Positions 26,028 to 32,606 of a stretch of DNA of 64,000 nucleotides are shown one piece after another. Source of the DNA: Cladosporium halotolerans (taxonomy: Eukaryota); contig NW_027191466.1 of assembly GCF_011745625.1 (NCBI RefSeq), positions 310,001 to 374,000 on the forward strand. Direction: 5' to 3'. Position 1 is the first letter of the stretch. Each line of letters opens with the position of its first letter. Below the pieces are notes generated by a model. The model did not search any database and was not told the DNA's origin. It was given only the letters and a program-made list of their open reading frames with translations. The translations under genes and the position numbers were made by a program.

Positions 26028-28774
26028 TTGGTTTTAGCTAGCTTTTTGATGAATGAAACAGACATTCCCAGACCCGATCTTGATGGCTTTCTTGATTCTC
26101 ATGTTCTCCGCTTTGTGATTGTGTTTGAATAGGCTATGGCTGATGATAGTTGCCCGTGGTGTTGTTTTTTGCGCCGAGTGCTGGGAGTTTGGAGGCTTTC
26201 ACATGCTGTGTAGTCCATCACTCTCTCCGTGTGGCATTTGCGTTTGAGTATCCTGAAGCTGATGGTAGCAGCTCATGGTATCGTTTGTTGCTCGGAGCGA
26301 GATTTGTGTGAGTCGAATTCAGCTCACTGGGCACCGAGCTATGGCATCTCTCATGGCGCTGATATAAGTTTAGATGCGACGAGGGGTCTACCCATATTCA
26401 TTGTTGACTTAGCTACGCGATGGGACTGGGCCAGCACTACCTCAGCATGCACTGGAGCGATTGTATCGCTAAAGCATCTTTTGCATCTGTCGCCAGCTTT
26501 TTGCACATATTCCACGCGCACACAACTCGCCCTTCCTCACACAAATCGCACATCCCCTTCTCTCAGGCAGCGCGTACACCGCACACAAGTTGCCATACCT
26601 CTCCCTCGACAAGGCCAATCGCAAGGCCGCAGCCTCGCCGCACACGACGCGATCAACTCCGTCCGTGAATCTGGGCACCTCGCAGGGTTCTCTTGCTGAC
26701 GCGCAGGCCCTACAGTTTGCTGCGTTTCAGGAACTGGTACGAAGTCTCTTCAGGTGAAATGCTCGGAGCCCCGGCTCGGCGGCATGGTAGTTTGGGACAA
26801 TTATGTTTAATGTCCACTCGTCTTCGACTGACGGAGCATTAACTGGGCTCGCTGGCTTGCTCTCAGCGGAGGCAGCGCTACGGCGAGAAGAAATCAACGC
26901 CCTCACCGCCACGTGGCGCGTAGATCTTCAGCACATTCGCAATGCTTTGGTCGGAGTTGGGCAGGTATCGTGTCGTCGTGCTGATGTTGGCAATGCCCAC
27001 AAAGCCGGTGGTGATGCTTCTGCCACAGAAGTTGCACAGAGGTGCGACGAGGATCCGCCTCACGTTCCTAGACATGAGGAATGACTTGTTCATGTCCGAA
27101 GACATCCATCCGAGCTCCGCGCGCCCGAAAATCCTACTCAAAGAATGATTCTGGGAAACCTAGAGGTCGAGCTCAATGCAACCCACACGACCAGGCATTG
27201 AACTGAGAGATGTGACGGGGAAGGTGTCTGCCTCTTTGTTTGCCTGACTCAGAGAAGTGCACGCCGGAAATCAGGTCTGTCTCGAGTTGAGACAAATCCA
27301 CTGTGCACGCGAGACCTTACAACTGCAGCAAAAGCCGCTGAGTAGGCATCCCCGCCATGTTGGAAGCATTCGGAGGCGTTCCGGGAAAAGCTCACGCTAA
27401 GGAGGGAGCCCATCCATAGGCACGTCCGAGAGAAATCACAGCTTCAGAAAAGACGCCACGAGCTCAAGCGTCTGAAAGGGTACTGCAGTTGTGGTCATCT
27501 CCGATCGTTTGCCCCCAAACACCGGTCACTTGATGCGCTCATGACCTACCTACCACAGCGCATCACGAAGTATGGCCGTCGTGAAGCGGACCTGATGGCC
27601 GTGCAAGAGGTGCGCTGGCACGCTGGTTGCGACATTTGGGCAAAGCGCGATGATTGACAGGAGTGCGGCTGATCAGCAACATCGTTTGGTCTGTCACTGT
27701 AGGCGTTCGCTCGCAATTCATGTTCGTGGTGGTGGTGGTCGAGTGACCTGTCCCCTTTCGGCAAGCACATGGTGTGCGGAGGTTTCACTGAGACATTGGC
27801 CGGTAGACGCAATCTTGTGAAACACTTCCGAAGGTTTACGCCTCCAACTCTTATCTCGACTTCAGTGGGATCTGCGCCGTTTTGTTGATGTACCACTCTC
27901 TGGGTAGAGCGCCACCAGGGGTTGTGACGACAGCGACAGCGCGAGATCGTCTGCAGCTCAGGTGCTCAGGTACGCCAGGAACGCCCTCCGCTAGAAACGC
28001 CTCTACCTGCCTAGTGTATCGTCACATCGCCGGAGTGGAGTCCCAGAGTGTCATAGTGAAGCAACGGTCCGGTTCGCTCCAGGCACAAGGCACGGAGAGC
28101 CTCCGCAGAGTCGTGCGCCGACACTTGCCCGAGCGGCACGGCAATCTAATCCACACACACACCCCAGGCCGCTAAGGCGTGTGACTGCGACACTCCCCAA
28201 CATTTCTGGCGGCTCGACACCACGCGAGAGAGACCCTTTCGTATATCAGCAGTCTGCTATACAGCACGGTGTCTGATTGCAGAAATGCACAGAGCGCCAA
28301 ACTGCTATACCACATGCTCGAGCGCCACTGACGCGGCGGCCGCTGCACTTCGTCACGCGTGGGAGGGCGCACATTAGGTTTTCTGACGACGATCCGAGGC
28401 CCGTGGCATGTCACTTGCGGCTCAACGTCGATGGAGGCAGCGCCGCCGCGCCTGCTGTGACAGCCTGTGAGTGGTTCTGCTCGACTGTTGTGTTTCATGT
28501 CCATCGCATTAGGCTCAGCCACCGCACTGTTGCTCGCCGACCTTCCTCGCTCTCCCTGATCGGCCGCCAATCGCACATCAAATTGCGCGTATAAGGTTTG
28601 GTGTTATGCCGCGCGGTAGAGCACGACTAGGAGATGGCCAGTCGGATAACATCCTGATCTATCATCCATTGTTTTTCCTATCTCGCTGAGTGTCTTTGAG
28701 AGGCATTCCCTTCTGGTTTCTTCAACCACATTCCTTTCACCAGAGCCCGTCGTTGTTCTGGTCCACACGCAATC

Positions 28775-30031
28775 ATGAAGCTGAATGCCGCGGCCTCGCC
28801 GGGCGTCCTGTCCCTACTGAGCGTCCTCACAGCCGTCCCATCTTTCATTGCCCCAGTCGCAGCAGCTCCGCAGGTCGGCAAACTCGCTGAGACTCAGGCA
28901 ACCAATGCCATTCCTGTCGAAGCACGCGACGTCCGTACCCAGATCGACGACTCGAACAACGAGGGCGAGAGGCACGACGACATTGAAGCCCCCAAAGGCT
29001 CAACCTTCTCTGGCTTCCCTTTCGGAAACGACGGCGAGGAGATTGCTACCTTCTGGAGCGAGAATGCCGACAACGAGCACGCCAAACATGCCTACATTAT
29101 CCTCCACGGCAAGCTTCGCGACGGCGACAGCTACTGGACCACGATGAACGACATCCTTCAATCCGCCATCGACGACAACATCCCCGGCGCCGATGACGAT
29201 GCTATCGTTGTTGCTCCTCAGTTCTTCTCCAAGAAGCTCAACTCTGGCCAGTACACCGACAACATGCTTGCTTGGGACGACGTCAACGCGTGGCAAGCTG
29301 GCGACCCTGCCATCCACCCGGACGACACCAAGCTGACCTCCTTTGACGCGCTGGACGCGCTTGTTGACGAGTTCTCCGACGACGACAAGTACCCCAACAT
29401 GCAGAACATCACTGTCGTCGGACACGGAGGTGGTGCTCAGCTCAACGTTCGCTACGCGATGGTCGCTAAGACGCCAGCCAAGGGCAACGCGCACATTCGC
29501 TACATCCACGGCGACGCCTCCACCGCCGCCTACTTCACCAGGAACCGCCCGCAGTCCGTTAAGGGCGGCGAGGACCTCCCCAGCCGCGACGAGTGCGAGT
29601 ACTACAACACCTGGCGCTACGGCTTCAACGAGTTCAAGGGCACGGCGGACGGCCTGAAGACGGCCAAGGAATACTTCCAGCAGTACATATCGCGCGATGT
29701 CGTCTCCATCGTCGGCTACGACGACACCGCCGCCGCCGGCGACACGCTATGCGCCGCGCGCATGCAGGGCGGCACCAAGCGCCGCGACCGCAACCTGATC
29801 TGGTGGCAGTACATTAACATGCTGGCGCGCACGAACGAGAACCTCGACGGCTTCCCCGGCACCTTCGACGAGCTGCCGGACTACTCTGACGTGTCCAACA
29901 ACAAGATCAACACGCGGCTGACGGTCGTCGAGGACGCGGGCCACGACGCCGAGGAGGTCTTCAAGGGCAAGGAGGGCCGCGCCGCGCTCTTCAGCAAGGA
30001 CGTCCCCACCGGCTGGAGGCCCGACGCCTGA
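28775..30031 (+). CDS. Secreted alpha/beta-hydrolase-fold protein (possible readthrough extension to 30226 with GPI signal)
   Basis: Signal peptide MKLNAAASPGVLSLLSVLTAVPSFIAPVAA, IILHG oxyanion-loop strand, VVAPQF, elbow VVGHGGGAQ, C-terminal AGHD; strong C-ending codon bias. Confidence 0.82.
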   Translation: MKLNAAASPGVLSLLSVLTAVPSFIAPVAAAPQVGKLAETQATNAIPVEARDVRTQIDDSNNEGERHDDIEAPKGSTFSGFPFGNDGEEIATFWSENADNEHAKHAYIILHGKLRDGDSYWTTMNDILQSAIDDNIPGADDDAIVVAPQFFSKKLNSGQYTDNMLAWDDVNAWQAGDPAIHPDDTKLTSFDALDALVDEFSDDDKYPNMQNITVVGHGGGAQLNVRYAMVAKTPAKGNAHIRYIHGDASTAAYFTRNRPQSVKGGEDLPSRDECEYYNTWRYGFNEFKGTADGLKTAKEYFQQYISRDVVSIVGYDDTAAAGDTLCAARMQGGTKRRDRNLIWWQYINMLARTNENLDGFPGTFDELPDYSDVSNNKINTRLTVVEDAGHDAEEVFKGKEGRAALFSKDVPTGWRPDA

Positions 30032-30753
30032 CGGCCAGCGAGTGCTGCTAGCCCCAGCGCTCTCCCTGAACAGCCGGACGAGCCCGTCCAGCAACCCGCT
30101 CCTAGCTCCGGCGCCGGCGGCAAGGCGTCGTCTTCTTCTTCCTCGACGTCCGCCGCCGGCCGCGTGTCTTGCGAGGCGGTCTTCACTTTCGTTGCCCTGG
30201 CGCTATGCCTTTTGGCCTTCGCTTAGGTTCCCCCCTCTATCTCTTACTCCCTGTAAAATTGCATCAGGCGCTCGGCGCTTGTGTTTGAACAGATACATAA
30301 TAGACGCATTGGCGTGACAGATACCGAAACAATACACGATAGACTACTGTTTTCTCAATCATAAACCATCCTTCCAGATCCAACAGCCACTGTGCCATTT
30401 CCTATACAGGTCAAAGCTAAAACATGCCTCCTCAGAACTGACCACGAAGGCCCGTCTCGAGCCATCACTTGGCGTGCGGAGAAAACATGCGAGGGGTACA
30501 GTATGAAGACCTATATGCACTGTCGCGCATATCATAACCTTGGTAAACCAAATGCACGCGGGCTTGTGAGTCTTGGGGATCTTAGCTGAGTTCGACGAAG
30601 TCGGCGAACGGCTCCGGTATCGCGGCGTAATGAAGGTCCGAAAGGTGCACGCATGCATGCCTGGACATATTATATGTATATTCGCCTCAGCTGGGTCCGT
30701 CGTGGTTTGTTCACGGATCACTTTTACTGAGGTACTGATTGAATCTAAACGAA

Positions 30754-32606
30754 ATGGCTCAACCAAAAACAGATCCCGACATCAAAACCCCAGCCGACCA
30801 CCTCTCGCACCTCGAGCTCACCACCGACAAGCCACAACAGCCCGGCGAAGAACTCCCCGAGATCCTGCGCCAACTCACGCCCCCCGAGCTCGCGGCGATG
30901 GAGAAAACCATCGTCCGCCGCATCGACTTCCGCACCCTCCCCATCCTCGTCGTGCTGTTCATCATGAACATCCTTGACCGCAACACGATCGCCAACGCGC
31001 GGCTGGGCGGCCTGGAAGCCGAGCTGGGCATGTCGGACACGCAGTACCAGACCGCGTTGATGGTGCTTTGGGGTATGTTTTTTGTTGCTTTTGATTGATG
31101 GGTGTAATAGGGGAGTGGACGTAGCTGACTTGAGCGATGAAACAGCTGGTTACATCTCGATGATGATACCGTCGAACATGATGCTTTCGCTGCTGAGGCC
31201 GAATTTGTATTTGCCGACGGTGGTGATCGTTTGGGGGCTGGTATGTACCACCAACACCCGCCGAGAGGATTGTGATGTCGTGGCTTACAGACCGTGATCA
31301 GGTCTCCGGCGCGACGGGCTTCGTGCAGAATTACTCTGGCCTCGTGGCGCTGCGGTTCCTGTGCGGTGTTACTGAGGCGCCGTACTTTGTCGGAGCCATC
31401 TTCTTCCTCTCCGCATGGTACACGAAGACTGAGCTGCCTTTTCGCATCGCCATATTTTACCTTGGCTATACGCTTGCGTCGGCATTCGGCGGCCTCATCG
31501 CAGCTGGTATCCTTGATGGCATGGATGGCCTGGGCGGGTATCAATCTTGGGTACGATCCAGAGAGCACCATTGCATTCAAGACTTGTGTTGCTAATCAGC
31601 GCATCCTGACAGCGATGGATGTTCATCGTCGAGGGCGCGATCACCGTCGTCCTGGGCTTCTTCGCCTACCCGCTCTTACCTAACTATCCCAGCAACACGA
31701 AGTGGCTGAACGAGGCCGAGCGCGCTCTCGCACAGTACCGCCTGTCCCGCGAATGCGACGGCGACAAGGATGAAGTCGAAGAGTCGGTCTTCATAGGCCT
31801 GAAACAAGCGGCTGCGGATCCCAAGACTTGGCTGCTGGTCTTGATTTTGACGTGCGCTGTGATCAGCATGAGCTTCACTTGTAAGTATCGCACCTGACTT
31901 GATATGCTTCAGGGCTGCCATAAGTATCAGCAGCTGACGTTGCGACCAAGATTTCTTCCCATCCATCGTCCAGACGCTGGGCTACCCCCGAGTCCAGACC
32001 CTGCTGCTCACATCACCACCATACTTCCTCGCTTGCATCTTCTCGCTACTCAACTCGTGGCACAGCGGCAAGACGCAGGAGAGGTCGTATCACATTGTGA
32101 CAGGAGCGGCGATCTCTGTAGTGGGTCAGATCCTTTCGACAACGACGCACAATCTCGGTGCCCGGTACTTCGTGAGTAACGTCAAAACCGCAAGCGAGCG
32201 CAAATCTCTAACAAGCGCATGATTCAGGCCATGTTTCTCCAGGCCATGGGCTCCTTCTCGATCTTCCAATTGATCCTGGCGTGGATCTCTTCGACCATCC
32301 CAAGACCCAAGGCGAAGCGTGGTGTGGCCGTGGCAATCTGCACCGCTGTGGCGAATGCGACGAATATCAGCTCCGCGTACCTTTATCCTTCAGCTGATGC
32401 ACCGTGGGTAGACCTTTCTCTCGCTTCACACAAATAAGCTGCTAATAACCCTTGCATTCAGACTATACCGAAAGGGCTGCATTGTATTGACCGTTGCCCT
32501 TGTCACTTGCGCTTCTGCGTCCTTGGCTCTGCGCTTTTGGCTGAAGAAAGAGAACGAGAAGCTCGACAGAGAGGAAGGTGACGTCGGATTCCGGTATATC
32601 CTGTGA
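30754..32606 (+). CDS. MFS transporter, allantoate/nicotinate permease (Dal5/Tna1-like); exons 30754-31072, 31146-31240, 31302-31550, 31613-31880, 31951-32171, 32228-32403, 32462-32606
   Basis: RRIDFRTLP, LDRNTIANARL, MIPSNM, RFLCGVTEAPYFVG, WYTKTEL, SW|RWMFIVEG, C-terminal FRYIL*. Six GT-AG introns splice in frame. Confidence 0.9.

Follow-up and report, generated by a model that had tools for sequence, protein, structure and literature searches.

When an open reading frame (ORF) ends at a stop codon and the same frame then stays open over a long distance, does the stop mark the end of the protein, or does it conceal a second C-terminus? This question is raised by a gene in a 64,000-nucleotide stretch of Cladosporium halotolerans DNA (contig NW_027191466.1, positions 310,001 to 374,000), here called the window, in whose coordinates all positions are given; every feature described below lies on its forward strand (+). 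The main ORF, intron-less and 418 codons long, extends from the ATG at 28775 to 30028 and encodes a predicted secreted protein of an uncharacterised fungal family with a predicted alpha/beta-hydrolase fold. Its C-terminal residues, GWRPDA, are followed by TGA (30029-30031) and then CGG, after which the frame continues for 64 codons (30032..30223) to a second stop, TAG, at 30224..30226. The coordinates and the peptide given for this arrangement in the initial annotation, which was made from the sequence alone, were found to be exact. The conceptual readthrough product reads ...GWRPDA-[W/C/R]-RPASAASPSALPEQPDEPVQQPAPSSGAGGK and would consist of the main protein, a Pro/Ser-rich linker and a C-terminal signal of the glycosylphosphatidylinositol (GPI) type.

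The reading that we consider probable is programmed UGA-C readthrough, by which a single mRNA would yield the alpha/beta-hydrolase-fold protein both as a secreted form and, in smaller amounts, as a GPI-anchored one. Most relatives appear to carry the Ser/Pro-rich linker and the GPI-attachment signal inside the ORF. In the lineage of the window and in a neighbouring Cladosporium-like clade, the first codon of the linker would have changed from TGG to TGA followed by C, and the preceding Gly to Ala. Most ribosomes would terminate at this TGA and release a soluble secreted protein, and a minority would decode UGA by a near-cognate tRNA, most likely inserting Trp or Cys, of which Trp would recreate the ancestral residue. 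These ribosomes would add 64 codons, and with them the omega site and the hydrophobic tail, to that fraction of the product. In the endoplasmic reticulum (ER), GPI transamidase would then probably process the extended form, which would reach the plasma membrane or the cell wall. We infer the readthrough itself, its level, the inserted residue, the GPI processing and the final location from comparative sequence evidence.

The position of the stop within the family is the starting point of this argument. A database search returned 205 relatives, and all those with a named source among the 120 listed are fungal, the closest named ones among them being from Cladosporium fusiforme (72% identity) and C. 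allicinum (70%). The relatives form two classes: (i) long forms, which read GWRPxG-W-QPAP and continue with a Ser/Thr-rich stretch and a hydrophobic end; and (ii) short forms, which end directly after GWRP[DE]A and number 11 among the 120 relatives listed. The TGA of the window occupies the place of W in the long-form sequence GWRPDG-W-QPAP, and this W is the first codon of the in-ORF Ser/Pro linker and hydrophobic tail. At the DNA level, the window reads GCC TGA CGG CCA, of which TGA-CGG-CCA (30029..30037) forms the conserved and putatively leaky stop context on the ancestral Trp codon. The two metagenome loci L003 and L005, with about 70% protein identity, read GCC TGA CAA CCA and therefore share GCC-TGA-C, and long forms read GGA or GGT TGG CAA CCA; the DNA of the long forms, like that of L003 and L005, was taken from metagenome contigs. 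The change from Gly to Ala in the codon before the stop is common to all short forms and, as a matter of speculation, could be relevant to termination or to the new C-terminus. The stretch is contained in 20 sequencing runs from 12 studies, and the contigs of four of these runs, each from a different study and about 2% diverged, were compared as four strains: none differs from the window at 30029-30031. The UGA-C context is present in 7/7 DNA sequences seen (the window, the four strains, L003 and L005), and conservation of an in-frame TGA-C, which the initial annotation had named as a sign of recoding, is also consistent with the 11 listed proteins that end at this point.

The age of the stop was approached with a maximum-likelihood tree of the domain comprising 46 rows. 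Short rows fall into two well-supported (starred) clades: S1, with six rows including the window and C. fusiforme, and S2, with eight rows including L003, L005 and C. allicinum. All members of both clades are short, and the 13 rows of the sister clade L, as well as all outgroups, are long. S1, S2 and L form an unresolved trichotomy in which the free tree needs two changes, and forcing S1 and S2 together costs 2.7 log-likelihood units (p-AU 0.066, approximately unbiased test); a single origin of the stop is thus borderline compatible with the data, with S1+S2 as a clade neither shown nor rejected. Synonymous divergence (dS) between the main ORF of the window and those of L003 and L005 is 0.65-0.71. 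The downstream neighbour of the window gene encodes a major facilitator superfamily (MFS) transporter, which is also found downstream of four long-form loci (L001, L002, L006 and L008), and not of L003, L004 and L005. Because it shares this neighbour with them, the TGA gene of the window is a positional counterpart of the TGG genes.

If the frame behind the stop is translated, it should carry a coding signature, and several comparisons reveal one. All seven of the listed strain differences within 30032-30223 are third-position and synonymous, although only 27.8% of possible changes are synonymous (chance 1.3e-4), and the only strain indel in the extension is a CGT insertion of 3 nucleotides (nt), which adds one Ser. 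The extensions of L003 and L005 are open for 74 and 68 codons, respectively, and the five indels that separate them in the DNA alignment are all multiples of three (3, 6, 3, 6 and 6 nt), bringing the in-frame indels to 6/6 across the strains and the L003-L005 pair. Directly past the second stop the L003/L005 alignment dissolves and its indels measure 11, 9, 1 and 1 nt; likewise, the 41 nt that follow the TAG in the window (30227-30267) contain eight listed substitutions and indels of 2, 1 and 2 nt among the four strains. The extension also shares homology with the tails that long forms carry inside their ORF, the R/Q-P after the stop aligning with the Q-P of the long forms. Taken together, the sequence comparisons indicate that the extension evolves as protein-coding sequence and that this signature, together with sequence conservation, ends at the second stop, in line with the earlier expectation of purifying selection on a recoded extension. 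The window extension contains no in-frame ATG, and no ORF of at least 50 amino acids lies opposite it on the other strand, both of which favour readthrough as the route to its translation. As a separate observation, the segment 30227-30267 is C/T-rich, and small indels and substitutions between the strains are concentrated there.

The anatomy of the extension suggests what its translation would achieve. It is composed, in order, of a Pro/Ser-rich stretch, a Ser run, the triplet S-A-A, a short polar spacer and a hydrophobic end, and such an order is the usual layout of a GPI signal. The candidate omega site S-A-A (omega, omega+1 and omega+2; 30149..30157), assigned by a rule-based scan, is followed by 24 residues counted after omega, and equivalent triplets, of the types SAA, SSA and SAS, are present in L003, L005 and the long forms. 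The C-terminal hydrophobic tail (30176..30223) consists of 16 uncharged residues, AVFTFVALALCLLAFA, the best segment of which has a mean Kyte-Doolittle value of 2.9; tails of the window, L003 and L005 reach 2.5-2.9, compared with 1.8-2.2 in the long forms. The same scan, which is not a trained predictor, recognised a C-terminal GPI signal in the window, L003, L005 and five long forms. At the other end of the protein, about the first 31 residues (28775..28867) probably form a signal peptide, as suggested by a hydrophobic core, PGVLSLLSVLTAVPSF, with a mean Kyte-Doolittle value of 1.6, subsequent small residues and a low predicted local distance difference test (pLDDT) score. Of the complete GPI-protein architecture claimed in the initial annotation, the C-terminal part was recovered as described (S-A-A with 24 residues after its first S, the spacer and the uncharged 16-residue terminus), and the hydrophobic N-terminus suggests a signal peptide.

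A variant of this reading accepts the readthrough and assigns the extension another role: a transmembrane tail, a retention or degradation signal, or a glycosylated linker. Several long relatives are indeed named 'Transmembrane protein' in UniProt, the rules of the GPI scan are crude, and readthrough extensions with predicted transmembrane domains have been described in Drosophila (PMC4973966). In every form examined, however, the hydrophobic run of 11-20 residues lies at the extreme C-terminus with no charge after it, and is preceded by a Ser/Thr-rich stretch, small-residue triplets and a short polar spacer. This arrangement makes a non-GPI tail unlikely.

According to a second alternative, the gene would make only a truncated soluble protein, the TGA being an old nonsense change of TGG and the downstream sequence an untranslated relic or an element of the 3' untranslated region. 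Relatives without the tail do exist: Fusarium proteins end in GWRPKA or GWRPEA, and Penicillium proteins carry short acidic tails. Open frames of this length are moreover common at such G+C content, and the ratio of nonsynonymous to synonymous substitution rates (omega) of the extension between L003 and L005 is as high as 0.65. A relic is nevertheless difficult to reconcile with the 7/7 synonymous changes in the frame of the main ORF, with the 6/6 in-frame indels, with the onset of variability and of indels that are not multiples of three directly past the second stop, and with the retention of the hydrophobic tail and omega triplet across a dS of about 0.7. We regard a soluble-only product as rather improbable on this evidence.

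Several points weigh against readthrough to a GPI-anchored form and have to be set beside the coding signature. A soluble-only product would probably be viable, given the tail-less Fusarium and Penicillium relatives. Residue-level constraint in the extension is weak, since its omega of 0.65 between L003 and L005 compares with 0.19 for the main ORF; long-form tails have values of 0.15-0.41, and the higher value fits a linker and signal that would be selected for composition and not for sequence. Outside the listed strain differences there are 14 less-supported ones; judged by the totals per contig, none of them falls in the X1 and X5 contigs that cover the extension, and the long X10 and X3 contigs could each conceal no more than one. 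Translation past the stop is something that we infer from sequence comparison, and the contigs compared drop minority variants; GPI competence is judged by a rule-of-thumb scan. The stop context of the window differs from UGA CUA, the one on record for readthrough in fungi. For the sequence behind the stop, the DNA data comprise a single species complex of S1 and two loci of S2; the remaining members of both clades are represented by proteins, and S1, S2 and L may be either orthologues or paralogues. Finally, neither the open frame nor the RNA structure distinguishes the locus from chance. An open frame is expected in 12-38% of shuffles: shuffling this stretch, which has 68% G+C, leaves all 64 codons free of stops in 38% of cases, no stop interrupts the +1 frame either, and neutral simulations with 0.35-0.7 substitutions per site retain an open frame in 11-35% of cases. 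Relative to dinucleotide shuffles, the first 100 nt behind the stop show no extra stability (z +0.43; 138/200 shuffles fold at least as well), and no structure common to the window, L003 and L005 was found, the folds of the two loci differing from that of the window.

The open frame was accordingly rejected as evidence in itself, as it is no more than chance gives. A hairpin behind the stop had also been noted initially, and its arms, AGTGCTG (30041-47) and CAGCGCT (30055-61), are present; they belong to an 8-bp stem, GAGUGCUG / CAGCGCUC (30040..30062), in the minimum-free-energy (MFE) structure, which begins 9-10 nt after the stop. As a stimulator of readthrough this hairpin was discarded, being neither significant nor conserved. 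In L005, a segment of 100 nt that includes the stop (L005:3009-3108) has a z of -2.55, with 5/200 shuffles folding as well, and places the TGA inside a long-range stem that has no counterpart in L003 or the window. The finding exceeds chance because of the comparative evidence (the strains, L003 and L005, and the relatives) and not because of the open frame or the hairpin; that comparative evidence, drawn from sequences, backs readthrough to a GPI-type signal well.

The stop context itself is compatible with leakiness. Among the tetranucleotide stop contexts of yeast, UGA-C is the most prone to readthrough, and the residue incorporated at UGA is Trp or Cys (PMC4748822). The hexanucleotide UGA CGG belongs to the type II contexts of viral readthrough and is used by Venezuelan equine encephalitis virus (VEEV) and Colorado tick fever virus (PMC13517186). 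Readthrough at UGA-CU serves fungi to expose hidden peroxisomal targeting signals of type 1 (PTS1), which in some species lie within the regular ORF (PMC4207609). Insertion of selenocysteine at the UGA was considered and rejected, as fungi are without the machinery (PMC4207609). When UGA as a general Trp codon was considered, 30029-30031 was found to be the sole in-frame TGA of this ORF, a check that covers this gene only. The CAA CCA that follows the stop in L003 and L005 fits the CAR-NBA downstream consensus of yeast.

The Trp codon could also be restored on the RNA, by adenosine-to-inosine (A-to-I) editing of UGA to UGG in some transcripts, which would bring back both the Trp and the anchored form. 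A stop that lies exactly on an ancestral Trp codon is the restorative pattern known from Fusarium and Neurospora (PMC10776026, PMC4817773). Against this, fungal editing strongly prefers U at position -1 and affects UAG and UAA (PMC11156358), and the A of the present stop follows G; a passage of PMC10776026 on such editing concerns UAG only, and 'UGA' is absent from the text of that paper. In the predicted fold, the A of the TGA is unpaired but lies outside any hairpin loop, unlike the sites that are edited, and the base at 30031 is A in all four contig sets, although consensus contigs would miss partial editing. To our knowledge, A-to-I editing that corrects stops has not been described in Dothideomycetes, although no search was made for it. 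Editing therefore appears very unlikely as the source of an anchored form.

A minor spliced or alternative transcript might likewise bypass the stop and join the domain to the tail, and hidden targeting signals of fungi are sometimes exposed by alternative splicing (PMC4973966). Four runs contained no joint across this region. In the window, L003 and L005 alike, GT is absent from at least the last 20 nt that precede the TGA, the codons leading to the stop are conserved at the protein level as GWRP[DE]A, and the alignment of the post-stop R/Q-P with the long-form Q-P argues in the same direction. The sole GT...AG pair found by eye (30002-30051) would remove 50 nt, is out of frame and has a poor donor. 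The earlier statement that no good splice donor removes the stop is borne out by these results, and such a transcript seems highly improbable. That the stop is an error of sequencing or assembly, or a recent allele private to this strain, had been entertained in the initial annotation and is refuted by the identical TGA in the four strains, in L003 and in L005 and by the 11 listed proteins that end there.

If readthrough to a GPI-type signal is accepted, the TGG/TGA toggle at the first linker codon might act as an evolutionary dial for GPI anchoring, an idea that we put forward tentatively. Proteins of clade L and of basidiomycetes would all be anchored, and those of S1 and S2 would be mostly released and anchored to a small extent. 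It may have been turned on more than one occasion, as the free tree needs two changes and proteins of the Fusarium solani complex end at the same codon. Oxygen-dependent ribosome hydroxylation has been suggested to affect UGA-C readthrough (PMC4207609); since UGA-C readthrough responds to physiology, the ratio of released to anchored protein could depend on conditions.

The nature of the protein itself was approached through sequence searches and a predicted structure. Pfam contains no family for the 418-residue protein, and a profile search of PDB chains by sequence gave a chance match only (E 0.13). AlphaFold produced an unusable model from 17 close sequences (pLDDT 37) and a good one from 65 relatives (pLDDT 87, predicted template modelling score 0.85). 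Foldseek ranks the poly(aspartic acid) hydrolase PahZ1 and an LpqC-type depolymerase highest among the matches to this model (E about 5e-12 to 1e-11; template modelling score 0.63-0.79 on the target, identity 13-16%), and at least 500 matches have E <= 0.001, those listed being alpha/beta hydrolases. The protein as modelled has the alpha/beta-hydrolase fold, which it shares with the PahZ1 and LpqC-type esterases. Unlike them, the window family has Gly in place of Ser at the nucleophile-elbow position: no nucleophile Ser within G-x-S-x-G was found after strand beta5, and the turn reads G216-H217-G218-G219-G220 (window 29420-29434), placed between E211-216 and H219-230 by secondary structure without superposition. 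H217, G219 and G220 do not vary among the 65 fungal sequences, nor do H390 and several Asp residues, and G218 is conserved to at least 90%. As the expected nucleophile turn is a conserved G-H-G-G-G, assignment to the canonical serine hydrolases is doubtful, and the modelled structure suggests that the family may comprise non-canonical hydrolases or pseudo-enzymes. Across the four strains, 20/22 listed differences in the main ORF are synonymous.

Further observations concern the surroundings of the gene and its relatives. Contigs from the four studies are transcript-like, starting at 28698-28838 and stopping at 30284-30343, and their overall span (28698..30343) is a weak hint at the possible extent of the mRNA, the RNA nature of the runs being a guess. 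The downstream MFS transporter gene (30754-32606) is multi-exon, belongs to Pfam MFS_1, and is 85-97% identical in protein segments to the neighbour of L001, L002, L006 and L008; it is far better conserved than the adjoining hydrolase-fold gene. Among Sordariomycete relatives, the Fusarium solani complex proteins P0052, P0060, P0071 and P0080, and also P0079, P0104 and P0117, end at the long-form Trp codon with GWRPKA or GWRPEA, and are known as proteins. In the tree, the Cladosporium-like clade, although composed of ascomycetes, nests among Exobasidiomycetes, Ustilaginomycotina and Malassezia and stands apart from the Fusarium and Penicillium members; its nearest named outgroup is Meira. An old horizontal transfer or deep paralogy could possibly account for this placement in the sequence tree.

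Regarding novelty, a full-text literature search retrieved no GPI signal exposed by translational readthrough, which agrees with the initial impression that such a mechanism had not been described. Among signals hidden by readthrough, PTS1 is established, and nuclear, transmembrane and prenylation signals have been predicted (PMC4207609, PMC4973966); the 2016 review PMC4973966 names PTS1, nuclear localisation, transmembrane and prenylation signals, and the word 'anchor' is absent from it. If the proposal is correct, the gene would be the first known example of a GPI signal that readthrough exposes and would carry the principle of hidden signals into the secretory pathway and to the surface of the fungal cell, with a single mRNA supplying diffusible and wall- or membrane-tethered copies of the same protein. 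At least 11 database entries of this family would then probably be about 65-75 residues short of the longest product, and similar hidden GPI signals could be sought behind the UGA-C stops of other fungal secreted proteins.

Known systems resemble the proposed mechanism in different respects. The hexanucleotide UGA CGG of the window recurs among viral type II readthrough signals (UGA CGG or CUA), which occur in alphaviruses and a coltivirus (PMC13517186). The viruses, however, use extended stem-loops that begin about 9-16 nt downstream, whereas the stem in the window is at chance level and unconserved. Restorative A-to-I editing in Fusarium and Neurospora also acts on a conserved stop at an ancestral Trp codon that is conditionally converted back to Trp (PMC10776026). 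It differs in acting on UAG with U at -1 in sexual tissue, whereas the stop here is UGA with G before the A. Secreted and GPI-anchored versions of one protein are familiar as splice isoforms of NCAM and acetylcholinesterase. Similarly, the insect Knickkopf-3 gene produces splice isoforms with and without a GPI signal (PMC4140639). The choice is made there by exon inclusion at the RNA level and here would be made by the ribosome at the stop codon; although the paper contains the terms 'read-through' and 'GPI anchor', it describes exon inclusion and was rejected as a precedent for readthrough to a GPI signal (PMC4140639). The closest parallel in design is PTS1 readthrough, known from Pgk1, Rpe1 and Art1 of U. 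maydis, GAPDH of A. nidulans, and human LDHB and MDH1. It differs from the present case in that the signal here would be of the GPI type, addressed to the ER lumen and carried by a secretory and not a cytosolic protein, in that the extensions measure 64-74 codons as opposed to about 7-20, in the use of UGA CGG or CAA in place of UGA CUA, and in that the present case is known from sequence alone. In both, a leaky UGA-C conceals a C-terminal sorting signal, and one mRNA yields, besides its main product, a minor one with another location (PMC4207609, PMC4973966). Across species, moreover, PTS1 is found either within the ORF or behind the stop, much like the mosaic of TGG and TGA in the present family (PMC4207609, PMC4973966).

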